Shown in pieces: positions 30,251-63,470 of a stretch of DNA of 64,000 nucleotides. The notes beneath the pieces are model-generated. The model made no database searches, had not been told where the DNA came from, and was given only the letters and a program-made list of their open reading frames with translations. Numbering within the stretch: position 1 is the stretch's first letter; the number at the start of each line of letters is the position of its first letter. This DNA is from a virus (lineage: Duplodnaviria; Caudoviricetes). Both the position numbers and the translations under genes were made by a program. The stretch covers positions 262,292-326,291 of IMG/VR virus record IMGVR_UViG_3300027804_002812. One strand, written 5' to 3'.

Positions 30251-30254
30251 AAAG

Positions 30255-30881: not shown

Positions 30882-30883
30882 AA

Positions 30884-35586: not shown

Positions 35587-35649
35587 CTAGTAATTTATTA
35601 TATCTTATAATTATAAGAACTCACAATATTTTGTATACATTTGTGAAGT

Positions 35650-36297
35650 TTATGGACACGCAACAAAACTTGTTATAGTCCCGCTAGTATCCACTTGTAC
35701 AGCATAATTATTTCCTCCGAAAGTGAATTTTGTGAATCTATTGTTTCCGTTATATGGATTAAATAATGCCCCACCAAATGCCGTTTGATAAATTTTCACA
35801 CCAATTACAGGAATTGTATTCGCCTCATTGATGAAAGTATAATAATTAACCGAAGTAAATGTATCACTACAAGTGTTAGCAGAAGTCGGAAATGTATTCT
35901 GTCCGACCAAATGAAGTGAAAATACTGGTGTTACCGATGGAGTCGGAGTAAATGTTGGTGTAGTTGTTGGAGTTGATGTTTGTGTTGGACTTACTGTTGG
36001 AGTATTCGTTTGAGTTTGAGTTGTAGTTGGTGTTTGAGTTGGTGTTAGAGTCGGTGACGCGGTAATACTTGGTGTCGGAGTTGGTGTGATAAAAATAACC
36101 TCCCCATCAACACACCCATTGTTGTCCTCAATTTTTATTACAATGTTAGTCTCATCATAAGGTGGTGGGACTGTAAAAGTGTAAGGAAAAACCGAAACAG
36201 TTGCAACAGACACACAACTTCCACTCGAAGAATTACAATAGAAAATGTCGACTGGTGTATTTGCAGTTACTGAAGTTATTGTTACTTGTTGACTCAT
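35650..36297 (-). CDS. Two-domain virion-like protein with Thr-Pro linker
   Basis: Likely start MSQQVTI at 36297; N-domain paralogous to that of 36315-37739. Confidence 0.7.
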   Translation of the reverse strand: MSQQVTITSVTANTPVDIFYCNSSSGSCVSVATVSVFPYTFTVPPPYDETNIVIKIEDNNGCVDGEVIFITPTPTPSITASPTLTPTQTPTTTQTQTNTPTVSPTQTSTPTTTPTFTPTPSVTPVFSLHLVGQNTFPTSANTCSDTFTSVNYYTFINEANTIPVIGVKIYQTAFGGALFNPYNGNNRFTKFTFGGNNYAVQVDTSGTITSFVACP

Positions 36298-36314
36298 GTT
36301 AATATAATTAATAT

Positions 36315-37739
36315 TTAAGTTGAGGTTGGTGTTGGAGTATACGTCGGAGTTGTGGTTGGCGTTGGTGTCGGATAAGGACAATTTAATAATGTTCCGAATG
36401 GACTCAAGAATGCTATATCATTAACATTAACTCCATTATATTGTGAAAATTCTCCAAAAACAATGTGTACCCCATTATTCAATATAATACCGGTGTTAAA
36501 AGAATTTCCTGAATAAGCTAAACCAGTTCCATAATCAAACGTGTTATCAATGCTTCCATTTTGATTTAGTCGTACTAAACCATTAGCGGACACACCACTG
36601 TAAGTATCAAAGTCACCAATAACAAAATATTTGTTATTATATTTCAAAATAGTTGTCGAATATGTTAGTCCACTGAATCGATTAAATCCAGGTCCAGAAT
36701 TGAATGTCCCATCAATCGAACCGTCAGTATTTAATCTTACAATTTGTCGATTTGTTTGTCCACTATATTCAAAAAATGCCCCTACTGCAAGTATTTTACC
36801 CTCATCAAGTACACCTGAATAGACTGTTCCATTAAATCCAGTCCCACTACTAAATGTATTATCAACAGATCCATCATCATTCAATCTAACAATTCGAACA
36901 TGGGAGTTCCCATTTACAGTTGTAAAATCACCAAGGATTATTTTTTTCCCATCACTTTGTAAAATAATATCGAAAACCTGTCCATTCAATCCAAGTCCTG
37001 TATTGAATGAATTATCAACACTTCCATCACTGTTTAACCTGATTAAATTTGAATGTGGATTTCCATTATATTGTGTGTAATTCCCACCGACTAATATTTT
37101 ACCATTCGTTTGAACTTTAATAACCCAAACCGTATTATTAAATCCAGTACCGGCACTAAAAGTATTATCAATCGATCCATTAGTATTCAACCTGATAATC
37201 TTTCCGTTGGATGCTCCACTGTAAGAACTAAAAAATCCTCCGACCATTATTTTGCCGTCAGCCTGTAATTCTATGTCATACACTGCATCGTTAAATCCTG
37301 TACCTATATTAAATGTATTATCAATACTTACATCACTGTTAACCCTTACAATTCTATTGAAAGATTGTCCACTATAACTAGTGAAAAGTCCTCCAAAAAT
37401 AATTCTACCACTACTATCTTCAACCGCAGCTTCAGCTTGGTCGTTGAACCCTCCATTAAAACTATAACAATAGTTCCAAGGGGTTGAACTTGGAGTTGGT
37501 GTTGGTGTTACAGAATAATTTACCGAACTTGTTCCGGATATGATACAATTGTTTGCATCAATTGCCTTTATCATATAATTCGCAGATGTGTCGTAAGGTA
37601 CTGGTATATCAAACACATATGGAAATGATGAATCCGTAATTGTTGATATATAAAAACAACCAGATCCGTCGACTTGACAAACATAAATGTCATATGGGGT
37701 TTGTCCTGAAATATCGTTTATAGTTACTTGTACTGCCAT
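36315..37739 (-). CDS. Delta-60 repeat seven-bladed beta-propeller protein
   Basis: Seven units of the type LQ.DGKI.VGG.F..Y.G.....I.RLN.DGS.D.TF..G.GFN; (TP)n flanks. Confidence 0.85.
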   Translation of the reverse strand: MAVQVTINDISGQTPYDIYVCQVDGSGCFYISTITDSSFPYVFDIPVPYDTSANYMIKAIDANNCIISGTSSVNYSVTPTPTPSSTPWNYCYSFNGGFNDQAEAAVEDSSGRIIFGGLFTSYSGQSFNRIVRVNSDVSIDNTFNIGTGFNDAVYDIELQADGKIMVGGFFSSYSGASNGKIIRLNTNGSIDNTFSAGTGFNNTVWVIKVQTNGKILVGGNYTQYNGNPHSNLIRLNSDGSVDNSFNTGLGLNGQVFDIILQSDGKKIILGDFTTVNGNSHVRIVRLNDDGSVDNTFSSGTGFNGTVYSGVLDEGKILAVGAFFEYSGQTNRQIVRLNTDGSIDGTFNSGPGFNRFSGLTYSTTILKYNNKYFVIGDFDTYSGVSANGLVRLNQNGSIDNTFDYGTGLAYSGNSFNTGIILNNGVHIVFGEFSQYNGVNVNDIAFLSPFGTLLNCPYPTPTPTTTPTYTPTPTST

Positions 37740-40965: not shown

Positions 40966-41053
40966 TATAAATAACCAGACATCAGGTTTTTATACATCCA
41001 ATAATATAGTTTTGTTGAAAACTAAATAAAGTAGTATCTCGATAATATTTATA
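40966..41053. promoter_or_regulatory. Divergent TATTTATA motifs serving the fibre operon (-) and the glycosyltransferase operon (+)
   Basis: - strand TATTTATA at 40966-40973; + strand TATTTATA at 41046-41053, 5 nt before ATG 41059. Confidence 0.55.
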
Positions 41054-41058: not shown

Positions 41059-41229
41059 ATGAAACTTCTAAACACAATTCAAAATATTATTAAAGAGGCT
41101 GAAGAACAATATAACAATGCCTGTGATTCATGTGTCCCTGTTGAAGAATTGGACAGACTTGAAAAACGCTACAAAGATTCCCTCAAACTACTGAAGTTAT
41201 ACCAGTCTGAAGAAAAAAAGAAACAATAA
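41059..41229 (+). CDS. Small 56-aa protein with CxxC
   Basis: Below cutoff: MKLLNTIQNIIKEAEEQYNNACDSCVPVEELDRLEKRYKDSLKLLKLYQSEEKKKQ*. Confidence 0.65.
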   Translation: MKLLNTIQNIIKEAEEQYNNACDSCVPVEELDRLEKRYKDSLKLLKLYQSEEKKKQ

Positions 41230-41282: not shown

Positions 41283-42224
41283 ATGAAAGACCCACTTTTG
41301 GATTTACACCTTTGTAGAGGACTTGGAGATACTATTTGTTCAACCCCAACTTTACGTAAATTATTTTTTGCATACGGAAAAAAAATATCCGTATTAACTG
41401 AACACCCCTATATTTTTAAGAACAATAAATACGTTAACAAGATTTTTAATTCTTCAGAAACTACTCGAGAAAGTTTAGAAGAACAATATGAATTGTTAGT
41501 CAGTTTTGCACCAAATTTAGAAAATGCATATAAATTAGGGCTACGTCATAATGTAATGGACATTCGGCAGTTTCACTCATCAGGATTGGGGTTTCAATTA
41601 TTACCTGAAGAATGTACCGTAGAATATACTCCCGATGAATGGGAACCAATTGAAAATCTTCCTGATAAATTTGTTTTAATACATCCAGTACAAAGTTGGG
41701 CGGCAAGAACATGGGACGCGGATAAATGGAAACTATTGTCCAATATGTTGAACGACAATGACATTGCCGTTGTATCCGTTGGAAAGTCCTCGAGTGAAAT
41801 AGGATTTCATATGGTTCAAAAACCTGTTTTCGATTTTCCTATAAAGTTGGGATTAAACCTAATGAACCATACCACCATTTCACAAACATGGTGGTTAATA
41901 CAAAAAAGTTTGGCATTTATAACGATGGATTCAGGCCTTCTACATTTAGCGGGATCTACAGATGCAAACATTATTCAACTTGGTAGTTCAATAAATTGGA
42001 AACTTAGAGCTCCATTCAGGAATGGACGACAAGATTATAAGTACCATTATGTTGATGGTGATTGTAAAATTGCTTGTGCCTCAGACATGAGATATGGTGT
42101 CAGAGAATGGAACTCCATACGTGGAATTCCACCATTGGTTAATTGTTTAGAAAATAAAAAAGAATTTGTTTGCCATCCGAATGTGTCACAGGTATTCAAT
42201 AAAGTTAATGAAATAATAAAGTAA
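41283..42224 (+). CDS. GT-B glycosyltransferase, GT9/heptosyltransferase-like, with four C-terminal Cys
   Basis: GLGDTICSTP, FVLIHP....ART.W, ITMDSGLLHLAG; C-terminal CKIAC...C...CHP. Confidence 0.8.
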   Translation: MKDPLLDLHLCRGLGDTICSTPTLRKLFFAYGKKISVLTEHPYIFKNNKYVNKIFNSSETTRESLEEQYELLVSFAPNLENAYKLGLRHNVMDIRQFHSSGLGFQLLPEECTVEYTPDEWEPIENLPDKFVLIHPVQSWAARTWDADKWKLLSNMLNDNDIAVVSVGKSSSEIGFHMVQKPVFDFPIKLGLNLMNHTTISQTWWLIQKSLAFITMDSGLLHLAGSTDANIIQLGSSINWKLRAPFRNGRQDYKYHYVDGDCKIACASDMRYGVREWNSIRGIPPLVNCLENKKEFVCHPNVSQVFNKVNEIIK

Positions 42225-42228
42225 AAAA

Positions 42229-45200
42229 ATGCCAGAAAGTTATAAATTTTTCAAAGAAGAAGTAAAAAATTACTTAATCAATAATGTCTCCCTTTCATCA
42301 AAAATATTAGATGTTGGACCAGGTGTTGGTACTTATTCTGAACTCATACGAAATTTTGGTTATAAAATTGATTGTGTCGAAATATGGGAACCATACGTAG
42401 AAACCTATAACTTGAAAGAAAAATACGACAACGTATTTGTCGGAGATATCATGGATTTTGACATATCTAACTACGATTTCATTATCTTGGGGGATGTTTT
42501 AGAACATCTCCCAAAAGAACAAGGTATGTCTTTGATTCAAAGAATTCATAAATTAGGTAAACAATGTTTAGTAGCAGTACCTTATCAAATGGAACAAGGT
42601 GAACATAATGGAAACATCTATGAAACTCATCATCAGTCCGATTTGACTATACAGTTAATGACAGAAAGATACCCTGAACTAACTATGATTTATTCTAATC
42701 ATTACTATGGATATTATGTCTCTACAGAAAAAATAACTATTGGAACTAAATTTGAAAAATCATTTGTTTTATACTCAACTGAAAATTATTTTGATATCCT
42801 CACAGAATGTGTGAAATCAATTAGAGAGTTCAGTGAACTTCCAATCATTGTTTACCTTATTAATTCAGATAGACAAATTGAAGTCCCCAAGACCAAAACA
42901 ATAAGATGGGATTTACAGATTGATGATTTATCTGATGACTTATACCTAAATCATAATAATAATTTTTATATTGATAGAAAAAATCCAACAATCTATAAGA
43001 TTCTAATTCAAAGACCATTAATCGTAAAAGATGCTCTATCAAAATATTCCGATACTATTTGTTATGTTGATAGTGATTCAATTGCAACTCCATTAGTAGA
43101 TACAATATTTTCATATTTCAACCAAACGTCTAATTACCCTTATTTTGTGGAAGGGATTTATGAATTTTTAATACTCAATGGGATAGGAGTCGGAGGCGAG
43201 TTAAATGAAACTTTAGAACATAATGCATGTGAACTTTTTGGAGTAGACCAATCAGTTAGAAAAAATTATAGACAAACTGGCTATTTTATTGCAGGTCAAA
43301 ACACTTATGACTTTTTAGATGAATGGTATTGGATGTGTAATCACCCAAAAATTCTGAATAATATCGGTCATTACACACCATTTAATGAAGAAACAATCGC
43401 AAACGTTTTGCTTTGGAAGTATAATATCCAAGAAGGCCTTCCATATATATATGTCAACGGAACTTTTGACACAATAAATAAAATGTATAATGAAGTAGAG
43501 TACAAAGGAGATGGAATTCGTAATTTTCAAGGAGACTGGCTGAGAGTCCCATATCATAAAGAACACCTTTTGTTTTTTCATGGAGAAAAAAAACCTGAAA
43601 CTATGAGACAAATGGTAGAAGAAATAAAAAAACACAATAACGTATCTGAAGAAATTCAAGTACACTCTCCCGAATCAAATTCAGAAAAACTACGAATTTT
43701 ATTTTTAGCCCCTCACTTATCTACGGGCGGGATGCCAGCATATTTACTCAAAAGAATTGAATCCCTGTCATTACATTATCCATTTATAGAATTTTTCTTG
43801 GCTGAGTTTTGTCAATATTCCACACTATATACGGTTCAACGAGATAGAATAAAAGAAATAGTACCCGAAGAAAGATTTTGGACTATTAATACCTTGAATG
43901 ACCATAATGTTGAGAACTCTATGAAAGTAATTGACCTCATCAAAACTCATTTTATTGATATTGTTCACATAGATGAAATGATTGAAGGTTTTGATTCATT
44001 CAACAAAGTCCCTGACGAACTCAAACATGCTCTATATGACAATAATAGAACTTGGAGAGTTGTTGAAACCTGTCATAATATTTGGTTCGATCCAGAATCT
44101 TCCAAACTATTTCATCCTGACGCTTACGCATTATGTACTCCTTACCACTTGGAAAAAACATTCAAGAAAATGCCTTCACATATGGAAGTTTTTGAATTCC
44201 CAATCGAAAATAGATTTCGATCTAGAGTTGAACAAGTAAGGGCACAAGAGGAATTAGGATTGGACATTTCAAAAGTACACATAATTAATGTTGGACTTTG
44301 GACTTCGGGTAAAAATCAAAGAGAAGGAATTGAAATTGCCAAACATTTTGAAGGAGGAAATGTTGAGTTTCATTTCGTAGGTAATCAAGCATCAAACTTT
44401 GAAAGTTACTGGAAACCCTTGATGTCCGATCTACCATCAAACGTCAGAATTTGGGGAGAAAGAAGTGATGTAGATACATTCATGAAAGCTTCAGATATTT
44501 TGATGTTCAACTCAACTTGGGAATGTAATCCTCTTGTGATACGCGAAGCAGCATCATTAGGTTTGAAAATTATTGCAAGAGACCTTCCACAATATGTCGG
44601 CATGTTTAATGGATTGATTACCCCTCTTACTGATGACATTCCCACAAATGTCAACAATTTACGTAGATTGATTTCCTCAAGTCGTGACTATCAAATTTTA
44701 GATGGTATGACTGAAGAATTTGCAGTAAAACATTATAATCTATATAAATTCTTACTAACTCAAGAACCAAGAAAAAAAACAAAAAGTAATACCAAAGTGC
44801 AGATTAAACAATTTTTTATAAACGAACCTTTCTTGGAAATTGTTGGTCAAAGTGATAGTGAATATGATGTTAAGTTTTTTGACGAGTTCGGTGTCTGTAA
44901 TTATCATAATACGATAAAATCAAACCATTGGATTAAATTAAATCGGAAATACTTTACTAAATGGAATACAAAAATCCTTGAGGATAAAGTTTTAATCTAT
45001 GACGAAACCCTAAATTATGAAAGCAAACGGGTTTTCATAAATTTTGATAGTAGTTCTTTAGGAGATACTGTATCATGGATACCTTATGTCTTAGAATTCA
45101 AAAATACCCATAAATGTGAGGTGATTGTTTCGACATATTGGAACCATTTATTCCGCGAAGCTTATCCTGAATTGGAATTTGTTGAACCAGGAAGTGTTGT

Positions 45201-45861
45201 ACATAATATTCACGGGCAATATAATCTTGGGTGGTTTTATGATAACAATAGAGAACCTACCTTACCAAATACAATTCCGTTACAACAAGCTGCAACAAAT
45301 ATATTGGGGCTACCTTATAAAGAGATTAAACCAAGAATCTCTTATAAAATTCTCGAAAGACCTTATGAAGAAAAATATGTTACAATTGCCACCAACTCAA
45401 CCGCAGGATGTAAGTTTTGGACAAAAGAGGGATGGCAAGGCCTTATCAATTATCTTCATTCTCTCGGATATAAAGTTATCAATGTATCTAAAGAAAACAA
45501 TCGATTTGACAACTGTGAAAAAATAAAAGATACTGCAATGGATTATACAATGAATGTCATCCATCACAGTGAATTCTTCATTGGGTTATCCAGCGGATTA
45601 TCTTGGTTATCTTGGGCAATGGGTAAACACGTTGTGATGATTAGTAATTTCACAGAACCTGACCACGAATTTACTTCTAACTGTACAAGAATAACAAATC
45701 CAAATGTTTGTAACGGATGTTGGAATAGTCCTATATATAAATTTGATAAAGGAGATTGGAATTGGTGTCCAGTTCACAAAGGAACAAACCGACAATTTGA
45801 ATGTCATACATCAATAACACCAGAAATGGTAATAAATAAAATACAACACTTATTAATATGA
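42229..45861 (+). CDS. Four-domain enzyme: SAM methyltransferase + GT-A + GT-B (GT4-like) + TibC/Aah-like protein O-glycosyltransferase
   Basis: ILDVGPGVG (MTase); YVDSDS (DxD); ILFLAPHLSTGG...FNSTWECNPLV..EA (GT4); FDSSSLGDTVSWIPY...FIGLSSGLSWLSW..GK.VVMISNF...CNGCW...WCP...EC (Aah/TibC-like). Confidence 0.8.
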   Translation: MPESYKFFKEEVKNYLINNVSLSSKILDVGPGVGTYSELIRNFGYKIDCVEIWEPYVETYNLKEKYDNVFVGDIMDFDISNYDFIILGDVLEHLPKEQGMSLIQRIHKLGKQCLVAVPYQMEQGEHNGNIYETHHQSDLTIQLMTERYPELTMIYSNHYYGYYVSTEKITIGTKFEKSFVLYSTENYFDILTECVKSIREFSELPIIVYLINSDRQIEVPKTKTIRWDLQIDDLSDDLYLNHNNNFYIDRKNPTIYKILIQRPLIVKDALSKYSDTICYVDSDSIATPLVDTIFSYFNQTSNYPYFVEGIYEFLILNGIGVGGELNETLEHNACELFGVDQSVRKNYRQTGYFIAGQNTYDFLDEWYWMCNHPKILNNIGHYTPFNEETIANVLLWKYNIQEGLPYIYVNGTFDTINKMYNEVEYKGDGIRNFQGDWLRVPYHKEHLLFFHGEKKPETMRQMVEEIKKHNNVSEEIQVHSPESNSEKLRILFLAPHLSTGGMPAYLLKRIESLSLHYPFIEFFLAEFCQYSTLYTVQRDRIKEIVPEERFWTINTLNDHNVENSMKVIDLIKTHFIDIVHIDEMIEGFDSFNKVPDELKHALYDNNRTWRVVETCHNIWFDPESSKLFHPDAYALCTPYHLEKTFKKMPSHMEVFEFPIENRFRSRVEQVRAQEELGLDISKVHIINVGLWTSGKNQREGIEIAKHFEGGNVEFHFVGNQASNFESYWKPLMSDLPSNVRIWGERSDVDTFMKASDILMFNSTWECNPLVIREAASLGLKIIARDLPQYVGMFNGLITPLTDDIPTNVNNLRRLISSSRDYQILDGMTEEFAVKHYNLYKFLLTQEPRKKTKSNTKVQIKQFFINEPFLEIVGQSDSEYDVKFFDEFGVCNYHNTIKSNHWIKLNRKYFTKWNTKILEDKVLIYDETLNYESKRVFINFDSSSLGDTVSWIPYVLEFKNTHKCEVIVSTYWNHLFREAYPELEFVEPGSVVHNIHGQYNLGWFYDNNREPTLPNTIPLQQAATNILGLPYKEIKPRISYKILERPYEEKYVTIATNSTAGCKFWTKEGWQGLINYLHSLGYKVINVSKENNRFDNCEKIKDTAMDYTMNVIHHSEFFIGLSSGLSWLSWAMGKHVVMISNFTEPDHEFTSNCTRITNPNVCNGCWNSPIYKFDKGDWNWCPVHKGTNRQFECHTSITPEMVINKIQHLLI

Positions 45862-46532
45862 ATTTAGAAAACTTTGTTTGGGAACCTAAATGTTATGAAG
45901 GATTCCGAGAAACCGTTGAAAAAGAAATTTTCGTGGATAAAATTTACGAAAGATTTTTTGAAGTTGAAGAGGGAGATGTGGTATTTGATATTGGTGCGAG
46001 TCTTGGTCCATTCACCTATTCTATTTTACACAAAAATCCTTCACAGGTGTTTGCCTTTGAACCAAGTTTTGAAGAATTCAAGACATTAGTTTTGAACACC
46101 AGACATGGAAATGTTACTCACATAAACAAAGGTATTTCCAACACCATTGGAGAATTCGAATTTTCAGAAGTATTTGATGTTTCAGGTAATCATAAACTTT
46201 ATTCAACCACATTTAATAAAGTAATCCAAGATTACAATATTAAAAAAATTGATTTCTTAAAAACTGACTGTGAAACTGGAGAATACGACATTTTCACTTT
46301 GGAAAATTTGTTTTGGATTAAAAATAATGTGAGAAAAATTTCAGGTGAATGGCATTTAAGAGAAGAATGGATGAAGGAAAAGTTCAGAATATTTAGAGAT
46401 GTTTATTTAAGATTTTTCCCTAACTTCAAAGTATATTCATTTGATGGTATTGACATTACTTGGTCAATTTGGAATGAAAATTTTATTCCTTATTACAACG
46501 AAATTATGATTTATATCGATAATAGAAATTAA
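45858..46532 (+). CDS. FkbM family methyltransferase
   Basis: VVFDIGASLG, AFEP, IDFLKTDCETGE. Confidence 0.85.
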   Translation: MNLENFVWEPKCYEGFRETVEKEIFVDKIYERFFEVEEGDVVFDIGASLGPFTYSILHKNPSQVFAFEPSFEEFKTLVLNTRHGNVTHINKGISNTIGEFEFSEVFDVSGNHKLYSTTFNKVIQDYNIKKIDFLKTDCETGEYDIFTLENLFWIKNNVRKISGEWHLREEWMKEKFRIFRDVYLRFFPNFKVYSFDGIDITWSIWNENFIPYYNEIMIYIDNRN

Positions 46533-47338
46533 ATCAAACTACTTGGTACGTAATTTCTGAAGTTTGAATAAATGTGATTCAATAATGATTTTGAATAATT
46601 TTGATTGTGTTTCGGTCCCGGATGAATATTATCAACCGCATCATCTATGAATGACCCATATGTCCCATCAAACCTATTGAACTCATTATGTGTTGTAGGA
46701 ATACCCATCCATCCATTCCACAACCAATTACATTTTTTGGATTCTAAAAAATATTTTATTAAGAGGTGATTTTTATACCAATTCATAAAATCTTGATAAT
46801 CATTCTGAATCGTTGTTAAACTATGTTGGATTTCTCTTCCCTCTTCAGTTTCCTCTGTGTAACCCCACTGTGAAGTTATCATAAATGGTTCTAATCCTCC
46901 ATCTTTGGTGTATAGTTCTCTTCTTTGTGGAGAAGTATACATAATCAAAACTAAATCAGGTTTGATAAAATCATAATAAGTTATCAAACATCTTGATATG
47001 TAATCATTACTTCTCCCTCCCATACCAAAATTATGGTTTACTCCATTCGAAATTAATTTAGAAAATTGAGCCGGCCACGTTTCATCATTATTAACACCAA
47101 CCCCTTCTGTATTTGAGTCCCCAATACTCATTATCTTAAATCCGTCTTTATGAATAGAGTCTCCTCTGAACCCCAATTCATTATATGTATAGGTACATAA
47201 ACGAGTTTTGTCAGATCCAGATGTTTGATACGACTTGTTGACCTTCTCAGATAAATTCCATTTATAGCTCGAAATTTCAAATCCTTCAGGTGTCCAATAT
47301 TTCAAATTATCTACACAGGGGTAATAGGTTTGATTCAT
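46529..47338 (-). CDS. SGNH/GDSL-like hydrolase or O-acyltransferase-fold protein
   Basis: GDSNTEG, NFGMGGRSN, DNIHPG blocks. Confidence 0.7.
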   Translation of the reverse strand: MNQTYYPCVDNLKYWTPEGFEISSYKWNLSEKVNKSYQTSGSDKTRLCTYTYNELGFRGDSIHKDGFKIMSIGDSNTEGVGVNNDETWPAQFSKLISNGVNHNFGMGGRSNDYISRCLITYYDFIKPDLVLIMYTSPQRRELYTKDGGLEPFMITSQWGYTEETEEGREIQHSLTTIQNDYQDFMNWYKNHLLIKYFLESKKCNWLWNGWMGIPTTHNEFNRFDGTYGSFIDDAVDNIHPGPKHNQNYSKSLLNHIYSNFRNYVPSSLI

Positions 47339-48414
47339 TATATTAAAGTTTTAACAGGCGTAATAAATTCTTGTAGGTTACTCCAACTATAATTGTTTGG
47401 TAAGAAAGAATTAACTTCTTTTATAAATTCATTATACTCCGAATGAGATTCATTCCAAATTTGTTCTAATAAAAAATCCTCTTCACTAAATGTACCCCAA
47501 TTAGTTATCTTACCAAAAAACACATTTACCTTTTCACCAAAAATAGAATACATCAAATCGTAGAATAACTTCATTTCTTTATAATTTTTTTGTTGAACTA
47601 CAAATGAAGTTTTTATGGTCCTTAAAGTTGGTATTGTTGAAATAAACTTTAAGTTATCTAATAATATATCCCAATTGCCATTTATTCTTGTTTTTGTTTC
47701 ATAGGTTTCTTTAGTTCCTGCATCAACACTAATTTCACAACTTGTAACATATTGATGTATGTTCGGCATCGATTCCCACATTTCTTTAGTCCAACGTGTA
47801 GCATTAGTGTGTAAGTGAATTGATTTCAGTTTTGGCCATTTGGATTTATCAAAATTTCTTAAAAAATCTCTAAAACCAACTGACACAAATGGATCTCCAC
47901 TACCCGTTATATATAATGTATTCACCTCGTTTCCATATGCATCTTCAATATCTTGTATGTCTTGTTTTACTTTTTTTATTTTATTACTGTCCGCAATAAT
48001 CATATTTAATCGACATGAAGGACATTCAAGATTACAGCTCCTGTCCATTGAAAATTGTACTAACTGTGGCGAAGTTAATTTTCCTTCCTTATATTTTTTT
48101 ATTTTTATATCTAAATTAGAGCTTAATTTATCTTTGTGGTAAAGAGGATAGACTCTACCAACATCTCCAAAGGTTTTCAATTGATGTATAAACGGGCAAT
48201 GATTATGATCACAATATCTATATGACCCATCTAATATACTATCTCGAATATCATTTGCTTCTTCTGAATTCCATGCGTCGTATGGTTTAGTATTTTCAGG
48301 TAAAAATTTAGTTAACCATGACGCACAACATAAAAATCTTTGATGGTCATGAATTTCTATAGAAGTGAAGGGAACCGCACAAATATAATTTTTTAATAAA
48401 TTTTTTTTCACCAT
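47338..48414 (-). CDS. Radical SAM enzyme with N-terminal SPASM/twitch-like domain
   Basis: CAVPF...LCC...C..CP N-domain; CNLECPSC; TGSGDPF, HTNA, ISVDA. Confidence 0.85.
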   Translation of the reverse strand: MVKKNLLKNYICAVPFTSIEIHDHQRFLCCASWLTKFLPENTKPYDAWNSEEANDIRDSILDGSYRYCDHNHCPFIHQLKTFGDVGRVYPLYHKDKLSSNLDIKIKKYKEGKLTSPQLVQFSMDRSCNLECPSCRLNMIIADSNKIKKVKQDIQDIEDAYGNEVNTLYITGSGDPFVSVGFRDFLRNFDKSKWPKLKSIHLHTNATRWTKEMWESMPNIHQYVTSCEISVDAGTKETYETKTRINGNWDILLDNLKFISTIPTLRTIKTSFVVQQKNYKEMKLFYDLMYSIFGEKVNVFFGKITNWGTFSEEDFLLEQIWNESHSEYNEFIKEVNSFLPNNYSWSNLQEFITPVKTLI

Positions 48415-48471
48415 AAAATTATCTCAATTTATTTTTCGTATCTAATAGACACACAGAAATTTTCTATCATT

Positions 48472-48921
48472 TTATAAAAAATTTCTTTGGCTTTCTACAT
48501 CAAGAGGATTATTCATCATAAACCCAATCAAAGTATACCTTTTTCCAACACAATTATTTACTCGATGGTATTCTTCTCCGCTAAAATATACCATATCTCC
48601 AACCTTTGGAGTGAATTCATTGTTGTCAAAAATAAGCTCACCTCCCGTAAAATCTTCATTAAGAAAAACAATGAAAGACCATGGATTATGATGCAAGTGT
48701 GGAATTTCAACCTGATTAATACTGTCATCCACCATTTGAACTCTGAACTTTTTGAAAGAAAAATTTGAGAACTTTTTTACTTCTAATTCTCTTCCCATTA
48801 AATCAACAAAATAAAATTTATAATATTCATCCCCATAATATTTTTTATCTTCATTGTGGAAAATATCCATGAAATAATTAATTTCATCAGAAGTTAAAAA
48901 AGATGGAATATATTTTATCAT
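48472..48921 (-). CDS. 2OG-Fe(II) oxygenase
   Basis: PHLH..WSFIVFLN..FTGGEL...HRV....GKRYTL. Confidence 0.85.
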   Translation of the reverse strand: MIKYIPSFLTSDEINYFMDIFHNEDKKYYGDEYYKFYFVDLMGRELEVKKFSNFSFKKFRVQMVDDSINQVEIPHLHHNPWSFIVFLNEDFTGGELIFDNNEFTPKVGDMVYFSGEEYHRVNNCVGKRYTLIGFMMNNPLDVESQRNFL

Positions 48922-48923
48922 TG

Positions 48924-49451
48924 TTAAAATAGTTTTGTTTCAGTTCCTAATTCTTTATAAGTTATAAAATAAACAAAAGAATATCGTGTACCTTTGGTGA
49001 TTTCGGTAACTTCATGAAGAACTTCAGAATCCATTTTATATAATAATCCCTTTTCTGTCGCCAACTTTCCATCAGGATTATAGGTGATAAGTTCACCTCC
49101 CTCAAAATCATCATTTAATTTGGCTCCAATGATTAAGGCCCAATCATTTTGTCTTTCTCTATCAACGTGTTTGGTAAATTTACCACCCGTAAAAAATTCA
49201 TGAGCATAAAAATAGTTGCCTTCTTTTATTTTATTGTTTGGATACTCGTCTTTCAAAAAATCAGAAATCAAATCGAAAAACCATTGTGTCGACTCTTCTC
49301 GTTTGACTTCACAAATATTATAATCTAATCTAGATTTATGTAATCCCGCAGGTGAACAAACATCAGGGCAATATCTAACATTAGATTTACCAAAATAGGA
49401 AATCCATGATATTACTTCGTCACACTGCTCATTTGTCAATTTCATAATCAT
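48924..49451 (-). CDS. 2OG-Fe(II) oxygenase (prolyl-hydroxylase-like)
   Basis: KHVD...LN.DFEGGEL...HEV..ITKGTRYS. Confidence 0.88.
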   Translation of the reverse strand: MIMKLTNEQCDEVISWISYFGKSNVRYCPDVCSPAGLHKSRLDYNICEVKREESTQWFFDLISDFLKDEYPNNKIKEGNYFYAHEFFTGGKFTKHVDRERQNDWALIIGAKLNDDFEGGELITYNPDGKLATEKGLLYKMDSEVLHEVTEITKGTRYSFVYFITYKELGTETKLF

Positions 49452-49993
49452 TATATAATTTGTTGAGGTATCATTAAATCACTTTTTTTCACCCAAAATA
49501 CCATAGAGTATCTTACACCTTCAGTAACTTCACTAACCCAATGTGGTATTTTTGAGTCAAAACTGATACAATTTCCTCTTGAGGAGTTAGCAATATAATC
49601 TTCAAACATCAAGTCACCCCCTACATAAGATCCATGTTCAGACAATTGGATAATATACGACCTATATCTTTCCCCTCTTTCCTTGTCACCAGAATCATAA
49701 TTAAGAACATTATTATCCCTATGAACAGGGAAAGAATCTCCAACGACATATTTCCTTACCAATAAGTTATGAACCTGTTCTTCATTTGAGAATGTAAATG
49801 GTTTTAGATTCAACTCAGGAAAGATAGAAAAAAACTCTTCGGGTATATCTTCGTGTGATACTAGCCCTTCTTGCCCACATTTACCATATCTCCTCCCCCT
49901 TTCAATAACATCCAAAACTCCACTTTCAAAGTATTGAATGAAATAATCACACAAACTATGACTCAATAAAATTTTTTCTTCAATTGATTTCAT
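49451..49993 (-). CDS. 2OG-Fe(II) oxygenase (prolyl-hydroxylase-like)
   Basis: HRD...YVGGDL...PHWV..VTEGVRYSMV; likely start MKSIEEK at 49993 (ATGA overlap). Confidence 0.88.
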   Translation of the reverse strand: MKSIEEKILLSHSLCDYFIQYFESGVLDVIERGRRYGKCGQEGLVSHEDIPEEFFSIFPELNLKPFTFSNEEQVHNLLVRKYVVGDSFPVHRDNNVLNYDSGDKERGERYRSYIIQLSEHGSYVGGDLMFEDYIANSSRGNCISFDSKIPHWVSEVTEGVRYSMVFWVKKSDLMIPQQII

Positions 49994-50571
49994 ATGATTT
50001 GTTTCTCTATTTGTTTTTGATTGAGTATATCGATACAAAAACTTCCAGCATAAACTATCCTCTTTTTTTCCGAGTTTGGAGTCGGTATTGCAGTATGTCG
50101 TATGTCTGCTGGAAATATAAATATATCCCCAACTTCAGGTAAAAATTTATATCTTTGTTTATTTTCGTCTTCAAATACTATACATCCTTCATCCCCACTT
50201 ATTTCATCTGTTGTCTGTAAATAAAACGTGAAAGTATAATCTGTTAAAATATTTGACCTACCAGAAGGATGAACTTGAATGTGTTGATGCATCCATTCTA
50301 AATTGAACCCTTTTTTTTGAGTATACACCCAATAATGTTGAGCATAATTGGTGAATTTTTTATTAGATATATTCTCTATTTGATTTTTAATATATGAATT
50401 TATCGATTGAAAACACTCCGTTTCTATTTCTATCCAAACAGAATTATCATTGGTATGTGTTGCCATTCCATCATTTAACTCAACATATTTCAAAAATTCA
50501 TCAATAGAATACTCATTATTGTACTTCCCTTTATATATTGTGAACTTTTCAGATAACTTTATTGGCGTCAT
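49990..50571 (-). CDS. Putative 2OG-Fe(II) oxygenase (TIGR02466-like)
   Basis: MHQH...FYL...G.I.F...PEVGDIFIFPADIRHTA.P...RIV. Confidence 0.8.
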   Translation of the reverse strand: MTPIKLSEKFTIYKGKYNNEYSIDEFLKYVELNDGMATHTNDNSVWIEIETECFQSINSYIKNQIENISNKKFTNYAQHYWVYTQKKGFNLEWMHQHIQVHPSGRSNILTDYTFTFYLQTTDEISGDEGCIVFEDENKQRYKFLPEVGDIFIFPADIRHTAIPTPNSEKKRIVYAGSFCIDILNQKQIEKQII

Positions 50572-51170
50572 ATGATAGATGTTGGTGACTTGAATTTTAT
50601 AATACCATCTCCCTTTACGAAAATTCCATTCTTAAAATAAGTCCAGTTAATCGTATGAATTGGAGTAACTATTTTTGTAAATTTATGTGGGTCAATCTTA
50701 TATTCATAATAATTCAACTCACTTTGTTTTCTAAATGTAAAATAATTAAAAATCGATAAAATACAATTATCATTAGCAATAGTTTTACAATAATCTTCAA
50801 ATTTTTCGTAATTGATATCGTCATGTGTATCCATGAATATTCCATCAAATTTTTGATTAAGTTTTGGGATAACCTCCACCCAATCTCCAAATATAATGGT
50901 TACATTTGATTTGTTTTTAGCCCAATTTTGAGCTTTTTCATAAATCTGAGGATTAATTTCAATACAGGTATAATGATTAGCTAAACTACTCATTTTGTTT
51001 GCAGAAAATCCCATACCAAAACCAACATCTAAAACGTTACCCCCATTTTGACAAACTATATATGAGTACATTTCCATCAAAGATTTTGATGCAGAATCCA
51101 TAACAATAGATCTCGGGTTATTCTTAAAATGAATATTTTTATCCGTAAAAACGACTACTTCATCTTTCAT
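50568..51170 (-). CDS. Class I SAM methyltransferase, RMT2/guanidinoacetate-methyltransferase-like
   Basis: VMD....LME, GGNVLDVGFGMG, CIEINP, GDW, FDGIFMDT. Confidence 0.75.
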   Translation of the reverse strand: MKDEVVVFTDKNIHFKNNPRSIVMDSASKSLMEMYSYIVCQNGGNVLDVGFGMGFSANKMSSLANHYTCIEINPQIYEKAQNWAKNKSNVTIIFGDWVEVIPKLNQKFDGIFMDTHDDINYEKFEDYCKTIANDNCILSIFNYFTFRKQSELNYYEYKIDPHKFTKIVTPIHTINWTYFKNGIFVKGDGIIKFKSPTSII

Positions 51171-51182
51171 GTGTATTATACA

Positions 51183-51614
51183 TTATAGTAAATCTTTTTT
51201 ATTAAAACGCTCGTATCTCCCATAATTACTCAATAATTCTTCGCCCTTATATATTATTCGGTTAGTAAGGAATGTGTCCTTATCTATGTTGGACTTATCG
51301 AATCCACTATTAATAAAGTAGTATGGTGTAGTATAAATCCAATGGCATCCTTTTGTCAACTTTACATAGGTACGGTTATCTGACGGAAAATCAGGTCCAT
51401 ATAAAAATATGTCTTTGATATGAGTATAAAGTTCGTTAGGTAATAGAAGTAATTCAGATTCTAATATTGGATACAAACCTGTTTCTCCATTCCAAACTTC
51501 AAATGGATTAATTTGAGATGGAATGTCTTTGATTGCAAATACACCAATTCCTTGGACTCTACTTGGTTTTAACCTTACAAAAATTTTGGTAGATATATAC
51601 TCGAAGGGAGTCAT
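51183..51614 (-). CDS. SET domain protein
   Basis: LKPSRVQGIGVFAIKDIP, YFINS (NH motif altered), I.KGEELLSNYG. Confidence 0.8.
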   Translation of the reverse strand: MTPFEYISTKIFVRLKPSRVQGIGVFAIKDIPSQINPFEVWNGETGLYPILESELLLLPNELYTHIKDIFLYGPDFPSDNRTYVKLTKGCHWIYTTPYYFINSGFDKSNIDKDTFLTNRIIYKGEELLSNYGRYERFNKKDLL

Positions 51615-51757
51615 TACATATGCTTTGCAATAAACAATTCAAAAAACTTGGCAACTGTTTGATTGACTTGTGTTTTTTCAGTTTGACTTAAAGCACTTGT
51701 TTTTCTTGTCTCAACTTGAGACATAGTTACTTTCTTATATAATGATGGATTTGTCAT
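51614..51757 (-). CDS. Unannotated 47-aa peptide between the ATP-grasp/Hint gene and the SET gene
   Basis: MTNPSLYKKVTMSQVETRKTSALSQTEKTQVNQTVAKFFELFIAKHM*; starts 7 nt after the upstream stop, and its TAA overlaps the SET ATG (TAATG). Confidence 0.75.
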   Translation of the reverse strand: MTNPSLYKKVTMSQVETRKTSALSQTEKTQVNQTVAKFFELFIAKHM

Positions 51758-51764
51758 GTTTTTA

Positions 51765-54020: not shown

Positions 54021-54076
54021 AATCTTTTTGGTTATATATTAAATATCTTGCAAGGATTTAATCTGTTTATGTTATT

Positions 54077-54619
54077 CTACAAAAGGGTCTTGCCCTTAGA
54101 AGTTGTAGTTCTCGAAATACAAATGTGAGTTAGTTCCAAACTTTGCGGTAATTTTAACTGAAAATCGATAACATCGTATATTTCAGAAAAATTAACCTTA
54201 TTAAAACCAACTCTTTTATTGTGTTCCAAAGTATTCGGATATAAATTAACAATTCTCACTTTTTTATCGAGATTTGAATTAATCATCTTCAAAGAGGATT
54301 GTTGTAACTTTAACTTACTTTCCCGATAATCGTCAAAACTTCCATTATTAAAAATGGCCGATGTCAGAATGTTGAAAATTGTCTTATCCTTGTATTTCCA
54401 CTGGTCGAAAAGTTCTTCGAATATTTTCTGTTGGTAACTCGGATGATAAGTATTATTTATGAAAACATCTAAATCAACAACATCATTCAATATTTTTTCG
54501 TAATTTTTCAAGTCATATCCATTACTTCTTGAAAATCCGATAACTTCATGATTTTTTCCCAACAAATCAAACAACCCTTTTCCTAAGAAATCACTGTGTC
54601 CTGTTATTCCTATCCTCAT
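54077..54619 (-). CDS. Short SDR-type NAD(P)-dependent oxidoreductase
   Basis: IGITGHSDFLG, FINN, YRESK (YxxxK). Confidence 0.75.
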   Translation of the reverse strand: MRIGITGHSDFLGKGLFDLLGKNHEVIGFSRSNGYDLKNYEKILNDVVDLDVFINNTYHPSYQQKIFEELFDQWKYKDKTIFNILTSAIFNNGSFDDYRESKLKLQQSSLKMINSNLDKKVRIVNLYPNTLEHNKRVGFNKVNFSEIYDVIDFQLKLPQSLELTHICISRTTTSKGKTLL

Positions 54620-55128
54620 ATCAAACTAACTGGTTCTTTGATATTTTCCTTGAATAAAAATATTATTAGTGAATATCTAATCCCATTTTCAATTTTGGTC
54701 ACCTCGTGTTCTCTAGTATTTCTGAAAGAATATATCGTCCCCGCTTTTTTCGGAATAATCTCTTTCGGTCCATACAAAATAAAATCACCTCCATCATAGT
54801 CATCATTCAAACAAACTCCGACATTTAATTTTTGATTAGGATAGTATATATCACTATGTCTTTCAAATTGATTTCCGGACTCGTATTTGTGTAAATGTAT
54901 TACTTCAAACGGTTTGACTATTTCAACATTCTCATCTAAAAGCAAAAATTCAGTTATTTTATCAAAAATCCAAGAGACATTTTCATTTCTAAAAATGTTG
55001 TAATACGTATATGTTATTTTTTCTCTTGGTCTTTCAACATGTATACTATTTGCATCTCGATGAGTACCTTCAATTTCTTGAGTTAATTTTATTATCTTAT
55101 CACACTCTTCTTTTGAAAACGATACCAT
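54616..55128 (-). CDS. 2OG-Fe(II) oxygenase (prolyl-hydroxylase-like)
   Basis: RHSD...LNDDYDGGDF...HEV..IENGIRYSL. Confidence 0.88.
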   Translation of the reverse strand: MVSFSKEECDKIIKLTQEIEGTHRDANSIHVERPREKITYTYYNIFRNENVSWIFDKITEFLLLDENVEIVKPFEVIHLHKYESGNQFERHSDIYYPNQKLNVGVCLNDDYDGGDFILYGPKEIIPKKAGTIYSFRNTREHEVTKIENGIRYSLIIFLFKENIKEPVSLI

Positions 55129-55164
55129 GTTTTAATAATAAAATAATTTGATTAAAAATCAAAT

Positions 55165-55281
55165 TTAATGGTTGTAAATAAAAGGGTCTCTCTTTTTCAA
55201 CTCTTCAATTTTCTTTTTTAATTCTTTTTTCCTTTTGCGGTCTTTAATTTTTTTCAAAAACCAGTCAATAATTTTCTTCAT
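55165..55281 (-). CDS. Small basic 38-aa 'KRDPFIY' protein
   Basis: MKKIIDWFLKKIKDRKRKKELKKKIEELKKRDPFIYNH*; start overlaps the carbamoyltransferase stop (ATGA). Confidence 0.7.
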   Translation of the reverse strand: MKKIIDWFLKKIKDRKRKKELKKKIEELKKRDPFIYNH

Positions 55282-59298: not shown

Positions 59299-59312
59299 AT
59301 ATTTTAATAAAA

Positions 59313-59924: not shown

Positions 59925-59934
59925 ATTAACTTAG

Positions 59935-60342: not shown

Positions 60343-60343
60343 A

Positions 60344-63469: not shown

Positions 63470-63470
63470 A

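Follow-up and report, generated by a model that had tools for sequence, protein, structure and literature searches.

A Four-Domain Phage Glycosyltransferase with a Thumbless TibC-Like Domain and Its Possible Role in the Glycosylation of Phage Fibres

Source Genome and Gene Order

What is a tailed phage likely to glycosylate with a single polypeptide that joins a methyltransferase, two glycosyltransferase domains and a C-terminal domain of the TibC/Aah family? The protein in question, P0001 (1210 aa; 42229..45861, plus strand), was identified as an open reading frame in the window, a 64-kb stretch of DNA. The source is the 326-kb genome of an uncultured freshwater jumbo phage, which is circular, as indicated by a 131-nt end overlap and by a split gene that is continuous across it.

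P0001 belongs to a plus-strand operon. Directly upstream is P0002 (41283..42224, plus strand), a GT9-fold glycosyltransferase of 313 aa with a GLGD motif, and the final gene of the operon encodes P0003 (45858..46532, plus strand), an FkbM-family methyltransferase of 224 aa (TIGR01444, 53.1 bits, cut-off 37.7). The FkbM gene is also immediately 3′ of the fusion gene in loci L009, L010, L012 and L013, and gene order around the fusion is kept in relatives. The unit opens with a 56-aa ORF containing a CxxC motif (41059..41229, plus strand), and L009, L010 and L012 have a counterpart of 56–59 aa with similar sequence at this position. A 335-bp spacer upstream of the operon contains two divergent TATAAATA boxes, which correspond to the T4 late-promoter consensus (40966-40973, plus strand, and 41046-41053, minus strand), out of 11 matches in 64 kb. 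Their positions and orientations are identical in L009 and L012, and the boxes are present in L010 as well. These boxes may act as promoters, and P0001 is probably expressed late.

Divergent from the operon lies P0004 (37753..40947, minus strand; phrog_15511, function unknown), a Thr/Pro- and Cys-rich protein of 1064 aa (Thr 21%, Pro 10%, 131 TP/PT dipeptides) whose position is kept across the close clade. Two more ORFs that are Thr/Pro-rich by composition follow on the same strand (33097-35586 and 35650-36381, within 33097..36381). On the other side of the operon, sugar-nucleotide and tailoring genes form a minus-strand block (46529..64000), which encodes GMD-like and Fcl-like proteins, a carbamoyltransferase, E1-like TPP subunits, 2OG oxygenases and a radical SAM protein. 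It runs across the record junction, past which DegT, UDP-Glc dehydrogenase, epimerase and GT7 genes are found, to a (GTS)n fibre gene (genome positions 27616-32736). The P0001 operon and this fibre gene are the opposite ends of one circularly contiguous glycan island of ~50 kb.

Domain Architecture of the Operon Proteins

Profile searches, a structure model and motifs bear out the four-domain architecture that a preliminary description had read from the sequence. This architecture is far beyond chance, since P0001 has 2781 long homologues; one identical protein is on record. Domain 1 (residues 1-165; 42229..42723) is a class I SAM-dependent methyltransferase, with a PF08241 match (28.8 bits, cut-off 21.2) spanning residues 27-108 and SAM motif I, ILDVGPGVG, at residue 26. 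Among family members it is an optional module. For domain 2 (residues 170-475; 42736..43653), a Pfam search with residues 165-480 gave no match. Its alignment-based AlphaFold (AF2) model (pLDDT 88.2) adopts a GT-A fold, which Foldseek matched to GT6 and GT24 structures and to GT8 proteins (probability 1.00, TM about 0.5), and the DxD motif (D281/D283, DSD) is invariant in 38 homologues. The model suggests a GT8-like GT-A glycosyltransferase of the retaining type. Domain 3 (residues 485-865; 43681..44823) is a GT4-family GT-B glycosyltransferase (PF13692, 35.1 bits, and PF00534, 32.1 bits, both above cut-off) with an EX7E motif at residues 765-773. P0001 has no hydrophobic segment (maximum KD19 = 1.08) and neither membrane segment nor signal peptide, which places it in the cytoplasm, the site of virion assembly.

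The upstream protein P0002 had been described as GT9-like with four C-terminal Cys, and both features hold (PF01075, 46.3 bits; Cys 261, 265, 288 and 297, invariant in 7 homologues). Against TIGR04414 it gave no match, and against domain 4 of P0001 it shows 22% identity (E 5e-5). P0002 and domain 4 have in common with WaaC/WaaF/WaaQ (GT9, PF01075) the GT9 GT-B fold, an N-terminal G-x-G-D and a C-lobe SG-x-x-x-L motif. The best family matches of P0002 are LPS heptosyltransferases, yet at ≤28 bits they fall far under every equivalog cut-off (135-569), and its C-terminal Cys4 cluster is not seen in the WaaF alignment.

A Thumbless Viral Branch of the TibC/Aah Family

Domain 4 (residues 876-1207; 44854..45849, plus strand) had been proposed to belong to the TibC/Aah (BAHT) family of protein O-glycosyltransferases. 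The HMM comparison recommended at that time places it above the curated TIGR04414 cut-off (275.8 bits against 200), and the TibC structures PDB 4RAP/4RB4 are matched at E about 3e-50. It is the only TIGR04414 domain in the whole genome. It contains the motifs SLGDTVSWIPY and CNGC...C...C, and the Cys residues of the putative metal finger (C1161/1164/1180/1192) align with TibC C339/342/358/370, all four being kept in 154 of 159 domain copies. D946, equivalent to the TibC catalytic D110, is invariant (159/159), and T1058, K1062 and W1126 are nearly so. Residue roles were taken from the TibC study, in which the Thr and Lys contact the beta-phosphate and the Trp contacts heptose O4 (PMC4358343). 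At the stereo-determinant position domain 4 has Ser, like AAH, which takes both ADP-heptose epimers (PMC4358343).

The supposed TibC layout therefore stands for the catalytic Asp, the donor contacts and the Cys4 finger, but not for the beta-hairpin thumb, which is absent throughout the viral clade. The corresponding segment has 60 residues in domain 4 against 71 in TibC, about 11 fewer. Because the TibC dodecamer needs this thumb (PMC4358343), a thumb-mediated dodecamer is unlikely here, and the processive ring mechanism of TibC is not simply transferable. The conserved residues suggest that domain 4, which lies on a separate, thumbless viral branch of the family, is still catalytically intact. 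That branch is a big clade of mostly viral members, found on at least 592 IMG/VR contigs and separate from TibC and AAH (SH-aLRT 100). The viral proteins combine a fixed GT-A/GT4/TibC-like core with swappable additional modules, while the bacterial homologues, at about 400 aa, stand alone. A homologous fusion is also encoded by Mel-JY01, a cultured phage of Microcystis.

Sugar Donor

Like the preliminary description, we found no ADP-heptose pathway gene within the window. The only rfaE-like genes recovered from the whole 326-kb genome lie at about 213.6-214.8 kb and 168 kb, and gmhA was not found anywhere in it. The phage does have a cluster of cupin, HldC-like and HldA-like genes that match the rfaE domain families best; the HldA/HldC-like pair scores under the equivalog cut-offs. 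The strong HldC-like gene is present in only one of five relatives searched and is absent from three complete ones. In domain 4, Thr-1107 replaces Arg-286 of TibC, an adenine-N1 contact whose mutation cripples the enzyme (PMC4358343), and only 40 of 159 relatives have Arg at this position. An ADP-heptose donor is therefore not assured, and both the substitution and the absence of the HldC-like gene from complete relatives support the earlier suggestion of a possibly different or host-supplied donor.

It is possible, although we hold it only tentatively, that domain 4 uses another NDP-heptose or a hexose, sharing fold and acceptor type with TibC without being a heptosyltransferase. The missing gmhA would fit, as would the glycan island, which carries GDP/UDP-sugar enzymes instead. 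However, the score above the equivalog cut-off, the retained contacts to heptose O4 and the beta-phosphate, the AAH-like Ser and the rfaE-like cluster all speak against this. The alternative concerns the donor alone and does not conflict with the main explanation given below.

The phage's kinase/nucleotidyltransferase pair also recalls documented phage clusters that put heptose on 5hmC (bioRxiv 10.1101/2023.12.21.572611), and the operon could in principle glycosylate phage DNA rather than protein. We regard such base hypermodification as very improbable: the described DNA glycosyltransferases belong to two other types, T4 beta-GT-like GT-B and TarP-like GT-A, and not to the TibC family (bioRxiv 10.1101/2023.12.21.572611), and linkage to 5hmC-forming enzymes was not found at the locus, where fibre genes are linked instead.

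Candidate Acceptors

Across 68 de-duplicated viral loci, 33 collagen-like ORFs (at least 40 G-x-x triplets) were found in 401 kb downstream of the fusion gene and none in 442 kb upstream; 2.5 would be expected downstream at the own-genome rate (Poisson P about 8e-26). These genes are large, proline-poor (Gly-Thr/Ser-Ser)n genes, downstream of the fusion and convergent with it. One occurs in 24 of the 39 loci with at least 5 kb of downstream sequence; the remaining 15 lack a large collagen-like gene, which counts against a fibre acceptor. In the present genome the best acceptor candidate would be the (GTS)n tail fibre (1706 aa, proline-free, 292 GTS and 63 GSS triplets), whose C-terminus matches the tail-fibre structures 6F45 and 8JOV. 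Its gene is convergent with that of P0001. It is not adjacent, a further point against this acceptor, but ~45 kb downstream, and sugar-enzyme genes fill the interval.

The preliminary description had implied Thr-Pro acceptors, and the main substrates could instead be P0004 and the products of the two Thr/Pro-rich ORFs beside it, with mucin-like glycosylation of their TP linkers. The divergent layout with common paired late-promoter-like boxes is kept in L009, L010 and L012, every close-clade locus with upstream sequence has a large Thr/Pro-rich ORF, and three of the genome's six such ORFs lie <8 kb from the operon. Nevertheless, we consider it unlikely that these are the main acceptors. TibC and AAH glycosylate Ser, not Thr (PMC4358343), and the enzyme's linkage across phages is to Ser-rich collagen-like fibre genes downstream, not to Thr/Pro-rich proteins. 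A divergent Thr/Pro-rich ORF is found in only 20 of 60 viral loci; the link is confined to the close clade, whose loci carry the downstream collagen-like gene too. Ser/Thr/Pro-rich ORFs are not enriched just upstream (6-9%, against 9-10% in the rest of the loci), and the genome's other Thr/Pro-rich proteins are distant, at about 96-102 and 150 kb.

Another conceivable target is the host (its LPS core, surface proteins or adhesins, for instance), in which case the enzyme would remodel the infected cell surface rather than modify the virion, perhaps as a block to superinfection. LPS-core synthesis is the classical role of GT9 and GT4 enzymes, the P0002 matches point the same way, and similar GT-rich cyanophage islands have been interpreted as modifying the host cell wall (PMC12801897). 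This appears improbable, given that P0001 has no segment for membrane attachment or export, that the family-defining domain acts on protein in all characterised members (PMC4358343), that the genomic linkage to phage fibre genes is strong and directional, and that there is no autotransporter nearby.

Proposed Role and Comparison with Known Systems

On balance, P0001 is probably a soluble glycan-assembly enzyme whose TibC-like domain primes the phage's own fibre proteins while its other domains extend and methylate the glycan. Domain 4 would most likely start the glycan on Ser, taking a heptose-type sugar from a nucleotide-sugar donor. Extension would fall to P0002 as well as to the GT4 and GT8-like GT-A domains of P0001, and O-methylation to domain 1 and P0003. 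An order of initiation, two extensions and a methyl cap is a reasonable inference from domain content. The (GTS)n tail fibre encoded across the island would be the leading acceptor candidate, and the divergent Thr/Pro-rich neighbours may serve as additional ones.

Homology to TibC (ETEC; 4RAP/4RB4) and AAH extends over the C-terminal 335 residues of P0001, taking in the catalytic domain together with most of the N-terminal barrel. The proteins share the catalytic Asp, the donor-contacting Thr, Lys and Trp and the Cys4 finger. TibC and AAH are likewise cytoplasmic, and their genes are likewise linked to a fibrous surface protein that is repetitive and rich in Ser. TibC, however, is a stand-alone enzyme of 406 aa rather than a domain within a fusion, and domain 4 differs from both enzymes in its separate clade, shorter thumb segment and Arg-to-Thr change. 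Their partner is an autotransporter, which the phage lacks; its linked proteins are (GTS)n collagen-like fibres and Thr/Pro-rich proteins.

Mycobacteriophages reportedly O-glycosylate their virions with their own glycosyltransferase genes, a finding ascribed to Freeman et al. 2023 (PMID 37329881, cited in PMC12619734). These are tailed phages that modify their own virion proteins, as proposed for P0001; the acceptors there are reportedly capsid and tail-tube subunit C-termini and the enzymes are separate genes, unlike the P0001 fusion.

In chlorovirus PBCV-1, A064R comprises two rhamnosyltransferase domains and a methyltransferase, and A111/114R comprises three GT domains (PMC7826918). These are soluble viral multi-domain glycosyltransferases, A064R including a glycan methyltransferase as P0001 does, and they assemble the glycan of a structural protein of the virus itself without relying on host enzymes (PMC7826918), much like the role proposed here. 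PBCV-1, however, is a eukaryotic giant virus with N-linked capsid-protein glycans (PMC7826918), and its enzymes have no TibC-family priming domain and are unrelated to P0001 in sequence. Their functions were shown experimentally (PMC7826918), while those of P0001 are inferred.

Our search found no published description of this enzyme type or of phage use of the TibC family on own fibres. If the phage does coat its own fibres with sugar, this would be a use of the TibC family without a published account that we could find. The swapping of modules on a constant core, together with the additional sugar genes inserted in locus L012, fits a diversifying surface glycan.

Domain composition of the fusion protein

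The ORF at 42229–45861 (+) encodes a protein of 1210 residues (P0001) comprising four domains. The N-terminal domain (residues 1–165) is a class I SAM methyltransferase, with a PF08241 score of 28.8 bits (cut-off 21.2) and motif I, ILDVGPGVG, at residue 26; its substrate would be a sugar hydroxyl. It is followed by a GT-A domain (residues ~170–475), by a GT4 GT-B domain (residues 485–865; PF13692, 35.1 bits against a cut-off of 27; PF00534, 32.1 bits against 26.4) with the EX7E motif ECNPLVIRE at 765–773, and by a C-terminal TibC-like domain (residues 876–1207), here called domain 4. A hydropathy scan found no hydrophobic segments in the protein, which is predicted to be soluble.

The GT-A region gave no Pfam match even at E = 1 and belongs to no named family (e.g. 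PF01501) by sequence. It was modelled with AlphaFold on an alignment of 38 homologues (pLDDT 88.2, pTM 0.88), throughout which D281 and D283 of the DxD metal/nucleotide motif (DSD) are invariant; a single-sequence AlphaFold prediction of residues 165–870 (pLDDT 34.7) was discarded. In Foldseek searches, the top matches of the model among solved structures were retaining enzymes, ABO/alpha-1,3-GalT (GT6) and the UGGT catalytic domain (GT24), and those among reviewed proteins were GT8 galactinol synthases and the LPS alpha-galactosyl/glucosyltransferases WaaI/WaaO, all at probability 1.00 with TM only ~0.5 and identities of 8–17%. Because of these values and the missing Pfam family, the domain is classed as GT8-like in fold only, the modelled fold being of the retaining GT8/GT6/GT24 type. 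The preliminary description, which had read a methyltransferase, a DxD GT-A and a GT4-like GT-B in one chain, was correct on all three, as it was in its other statements on the sequence itself.

A thumbless variant of the TibC/Aah family

The closest enzyme family to domain 4 is that of the bacterial autotransporter heptosyltransferases TibC and AAH. Against the NCBIfam profile TIGR04414, named “autotransporter strand-loop-strand O-heptosyltransferase,” domain 4 scores 275.8 bits over profile positions 26–373 of 374, above the equivalog cut-off of 200 and as the preliminary description had led us to expect. It scored 279.9 bits in the whole-genome profile search, is the only TIGR04414 domain in the genome, and matches the two TibC crystal entries with E ~3e-50.

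Residue roles in TibC and AAH (D110, T226, K230, R286, P300, W305, the Cys finger and the thumb) were taken from PMC4358343, and conservation was counted over 159 aligned copies of the domain. The catalytic base D110 corresponds to D946, a position occupied by D in 4RAP and by A in the D110A entry 4RB4, and is invariant (159/159), as is W1126, the counterpart of W305, which contacts heptose O4 (159/159). The beta-phosphate contacts T226 and K230 correspond to T1058 (T or S in 158/159) and K1062 (K in 157/159), and the four-Cys metal finger C339/C342/C358/C370 to C1161/C1164/C1180/C1192, kept in 154/159. The stereoselectivity position, for which TibC has Pro-300 and AAH has Ser-294, is Ser-1121; enzymes with Ser here (AAH and the TibC P300S mutant) accept both ADP-D,D- and ADP-L,D-heptose (PMC4358343).

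Other features of TibC are missing. Its Arg-286 touches adenine N1 and is the basis of ADP specificity, such that the R286A mutation abolishes or largely diminishes activity (PMC4358343); the equivalent residue is T1107, and the residue counts in this column over the 159 copies include T 54, R 40, V 27, I 14 and A 9. The tip of the beta-hairpin thumb (F265/V266), a hairpin that in TibC mediates the ring dodecamer, falls in an alignment gap in domain 4, and the segment holding the thumb (K230 to SGLSWL) is 60 residues long in P0001 and 59–61 in 66/66 viral-clade domains, against 71 in TibC and a cellular median of 71. No autotransporter partner gene was found in the P0001 locus.

Since the Asp, the donor contacts and the Cys finger are kept but Arg-286, the thumb and the autotransporter are absent, domain 4 is by sequence a true and apparently catalytically competent member of the TibC/Aah family, and a variant one for which neither the TibC-type dodecamer nor strict ADP specificity can be assumed. 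The TibC/Aah layout previously ascribed to this domain thus stands with respect to family score, catalytic Asp and four Cys, but does not extend to thumb, Arg-286 or partner. Compared with TibC and AAH, the branch is viral, thumbless, fused to other domains and associated with a different partner protein. The reaction typical of the family, which domain 4 may share, is the O-heptosylation of protein Ser with ADP-heptose.

Neighboring genes and operon organization

Directly upstream, at 41283–42224 (+), lies P0002, a GT9-like gene (PF01075, 46.3 bits). As had been pointed out from the sequence, its product ends with four Cys, and these are invariant in 7 homologues. It shares 22% identity with domain 4 (E 5e-5) and has no match to TIGR04414. 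Downstream of the fusion gene is an FkbM methyltransferase gene (45858–46532, +; NCBIfam match), and the plus-strand unit opens with a 56-aa helical ORF containing a CxxC pair (41059–41229, +), which is kept in this phage and in the relatives L009, L010 and L012. The gene order Thr/Pro-rich gene, 56-aa ORF, GT9, fusion, FkbM is kept in relatives whose fusion proteins are only 58–67% identical.

A divergent TATAAATA pair in the spacer is conserved in relatives. As TATAAATA is not enriched in the window as a whole (11 seen against 7.9 expected), only its paired, conserved spacer placement was taken as evidence. The conserved divergent arrangement and the paired boxes suggest that the Thr/Pro-rich gene and the glycosyltransferase operon are expressed together late, and late expression of P0001 itself is probable.

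Some relatives have further genes in this region. An insertion of five genes between GT9 and fusion in L012 (5703–9974), namely those for a 555-aa FkbM protein, a GT2, a PglD-like acetyltransferase, a DegT aminotransferase and one more methyltransferase, shows that the island takes up whole sugar pathways. In the 299-kb relative L010 (15944–17644), the fusion operon is followed by APS-kinase-like, small cytidylyltransferase-like and sulfotransferase genes, which hint at sulfation of glycan or protein.

Distribution and modularity of the family

A search of 5.8 billion proteins yielded 2781 long homologues of P0001. Among the best 120 of these, the GT-A/GT4/TibC-like core is constant and conservation is highest in the TibC-like domain (66–92% identity). 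The variable modules in the same set are the N-terminal methyltransferase, GT25, GT32, FkbM and a pyruvyl-transferase that sits between GT-A and GT4, and lengths reach 1914 aa. Domain 4 alone, in an exhaustive HMMER search, matched 1477 clusters at 50% identity, 753 of them at E <= 1e-30, and the best 150 of the 1477 are mostly multi-domain. Relatives are encoded on at least 592 contigs of IMG/VR, and the P0001 locus itself is found near-identical in freshwater metagenomes from 11 studies (2017–2022); no RNA runs were among the sequencing runs listed as containing it.

Homologous ORFs in bacterial genomes are mostly stand-alone and 350–460 aa long, against a viral median of 1118 aa. In a midpoint-rooted tree of 136 domains, sampled from the 80 best entries per collection, the 64 viral rows group as a single clade (SH-aLRT 100). 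Fusion genes on two short contigs from Chitinophagaceae bins (L096 and L097, Sediminibacterium and Chitinophaga MAGs) nest within viral subclades and are probably phage DNA; they offer at most a weak hint that Chitinophagaceae are hosts.

The cultured cyanophage Mel-JY01 of Microcystis (PP395634; L011:3065–8430) encodes a 1226-aa fusion running from GT4 to a TibC-like domain (TIGR04414, 317 bits). Its annotation reads only “methyltransferase FkbM,” and the gene immediately before it encodes an ISSS-repeat “structural protein” that is 18% Ser. A 639-aa “cytidylyltransferase-like” protein of this phage was considered as a sign of heptose synthesis and dropped, as it had no NCBIfam match. The JGI automatic annotation already places the TIGR04414 name on P0001-type proteins. 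Our literature search on phage TibC-type enzymes found no paper describing them; a moraphage paper (PMC12619734) does not concern the phage lineage of P0001.

Collagen-like fibers as candidate acceptors

The partner gene was sought in 68 de-duplicated viral loci, with a collagen-like ORF defined by at least 40 G-x-x triplets. None occurs in 442 kb upstream of the fusion gene, against 33 in 401 kb downstream, where 2.5 would be expected at the rate of the phage's own genome (2 per 326 kb; Poisson P ~8e-26). This asymmetry serves as an internal control for the link. A downstream collagen-like ORF is present in 24 of the 39 loci with at least 5 kb of downstream sequence, and those listed all lie on the opposite strand. 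Statistically, the linked partner of the fusion gene in viral loci is a collagen-like (G-T/S-S)n gene. Small G-x-x ORFs are also found nearby in 14 of 68 bacterial loci.

The window forms the final 64 kb (262,292–326,291) of a 326,291-bp virus record whose completeness is rated 100%. The record is listed as linear, yet its first and last 131 bases are 99.2% identical to each other, and the record boundary cuts through a GDP-fucose-synthase-like epimerase gene, of which 63471–64000 of the window runs exactly into genome positions 1–576. The assembly is therefore circular or circularly permuted, which places the one giant collagen-like gene of this genome (27,616–32,736, −) ~45 kb downstream of the operon and convergent with it. 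Its 1706-aa product, the (GTS)n fiber, contains 292 GTS and 63 GSS triplets and 1% Pro, and its C-terminus matches the solved phage tail-fiber proteins 6F45 and 8JOV and the MYRF chaperone domain.

Between operon and fiber lies a single minus-strand gene block rich in sugar enzymes, including a GMD-like dehydratase, Fcl-like reductases, a carbamoyltransferase, E1-like TPP subunits, a DegT, a UDP-Glc/GDP-Man dehydrogenase and two GT7-lectin fusions. The fusions, near the fiber gene (L177:262–3128; genome 20262–23128), are ~480-aa paralogues that join a GT7 (beta-1,4-galactosyltransferase-like) domain to a concanavalin-A-like lectin. At 55278–59298, the NodU/CmcH-type carbamoyltransferase (555 aa) adjoins split pyruvate-dehydrogenase-E1-like TPP subunits (209 and 175 aa); together they probably serve sugar tailoring, by carbamoylation and two-carbon branch transfer. 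Given the downstream link across loci, the convergent fiber in the same genome, the intervening sugar genes and the lone TIGR04414 domain, the (GTS)n fiber is the best acceptor candidate.

The preliminary description had instead named Thr-Pro peptides as test substrates, and the adjacent Thr/Pro-rich proteins are possible additional acceptors. Thr makes up 21% and Pro 10% of P0004 (37753–40947, −), which is divergent from the operon and whose Cys-rich domains are separated by long TP linkers; two similar genes adjoin it. Both the gene order from the Thr/Pro-rich gene to FkbM and the TATAAATA pair are conserved across the relatives with 58–67% identical fusions. The association is clade-specific, however, a divergent Thr/Pro-rich ORF being present in only 20 of 60 viral loci, and in a within-locus test the 5 kb upstream of the fusion gene proved no richer in Ser/Thr/Pro-rich ORFs than the rest of the loci. 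Moreover, the residue modified by TibC and AAH is Ser, not Thr (PMC4358343). Members of the close clade (L010, L017, L018, L024 and L025) have Thr/Pro-rich genes upstream and a collagen-like gene downstream together. The Thr-Pro idea thus retains its conserved neighbors in close relatives but does not generalize; the fiber is the better acceptor candidate for domain 4, and the Thr/Pro-rich proteins are perhaps acceptors of P0002 or other transferases.

Searches with P0004 gave nothing among 50,697 phage records and placed it in no Pfam or NCBIfam family, and its Atlas matches are unnamed viral clusters only, below 0.9. Its left flank contains replication genes rather than a structural module. 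Between the Thr/Pro-rich genes, 36315–37739 encodes a 474-aa protein in which the DUF5122 beta-propeller repeat (PF17164, 234 bits) occurs six times. Small 2OG-Fe(II) oxygenases resembling prolyl-4-hydroxylases (PF13640), at least six in number, are also encoded in the island beside the Thr/Pro-rich proteins (48472–51170, 54616–55128 and 59313–59924), and might hydroxylate Pro, or Lys/Asp, in them ahead of glycosylation.

Source of the sugar donor

As the preliminary description had noted for the ADP-heptose pathway, the 64-kb window contains no heptose-pathway genes. Elsewhere in the genome, a three-gene cluster (G000:C1:213226–214755; L008:7226–8755) encodes a cupin whose matches, all weak, are sugar-isomerase-like (mannose-6-P/lyxose isomerase), a 139-aa nucleotidyltransferase (rfaE domain II, 105.8 bits against a cut-off of 181.5; next family 57) and a 247-aa PfkB kinase (rfaE domain I, 113.6 bits against a cut-off of 345; ribokinase 47). 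Both enzymes thus fall below the HldE/RfaE equivalog cut-offs, and a whole-genome search for gmhA found none. The cluster is possibly a phage module for NDP-heptose or a related sugar that operates without GmhA. Viruses are reported to encode NDP-heptose enzymes, usually without the phosphatase (PMC11461863, PMC11573728).

Assignment of the HldC-like gene to the promiscuous STTR5 type was dropped, as the phage motif is RLDKFSTT and the published STTR5 motif (F/L)XXGRSTT. The strong HldC-like nucleotidyltransferase was found in only 1/5 relatives and in 0/3 complete ones, for which reason a tight link with the fusion gene was rejected. This enzyme could also serve DNA heptosylation; that the operon itself glycosylates phage DNA is the reading we rank last, behind protein glycosylation. 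With no pathway in the window, no gmhA, sub-cut-off enzymes and a patchy HldC-like gene, the donor may be host-derived or other than ADP-heptose, and the chances that the transferred sugar is a heptose are roughly even.

A proposed glycan assembly line

The analysis establishes domain identities, conserved residues, synteny and gene co-occurrence; from these we infer a chemistry, an order of steps and acceptors as follows. Domain 4 would prime Ser on fiber proteins; the GT4, the GT8-like GT-A and the GT9 enzyme would then lengthen the glycan, and the two methyltransferases would cap it. Diversification could proceed through module swapping and through inserted sugar genes, such as DegT, PglD and GT2 in L012. 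In its broadest form, to which we give somewhat less than an even chance, the proposal is that a phage-specific thumbless TibC/Aah branch is the priming module of shufflable multi-enzyme glycan assembly lines, in which methyltransferase, GT25, GT32, pyruvyl-transferase and FkbM are swappable. These would coat collagen-like (Gly-Thr/Ser-Ser)n tail fibers, and here perhaps Thr/Pro-rich proteins too, with variable methylated glycans, and would amount to a widespread means of virion glycosylation among aquatic phages that has gone undescribed until now.

The chlorovirus proteins A064R (two GTs and a methyltransferase) and A111/114R are likewise multi-domain and have been characterized experimentally (PMC7826918). 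Together with the reported virion glycosylation of mycobacteriophages, they are the closest functional analogues of P0001.

A TibC relative that looks catalytically intact forms the constant core of a viral protein family of great abundance (at least 592 viral contigs and 2781 long homologues), in which it is fused to extension and capping enzymes and genomically tied to collagen-like phage fibers. If the proposal is true, the system would be a counterpart of fibril glycosylation in giant viruses in which the swapping of modules acts as an arms-race device, and would answer the question raised in PMC11573728 on the purpose of virus-encoded NDP-heptose synthesis genes. The family would also supply a ready-made set of natural enzymes, soluble and modular, for glycosylating proteins, and Mel-JY01, which is cultured and carries a homologous fusion, is a ready experimental system for the fiber-glycosylation idea. 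Protein heptosylation or a related O-glycosylation would then be a common fiber coating among environmental phages, with a bearing on host recognition by the virion, its protease resistance and its stickiness.
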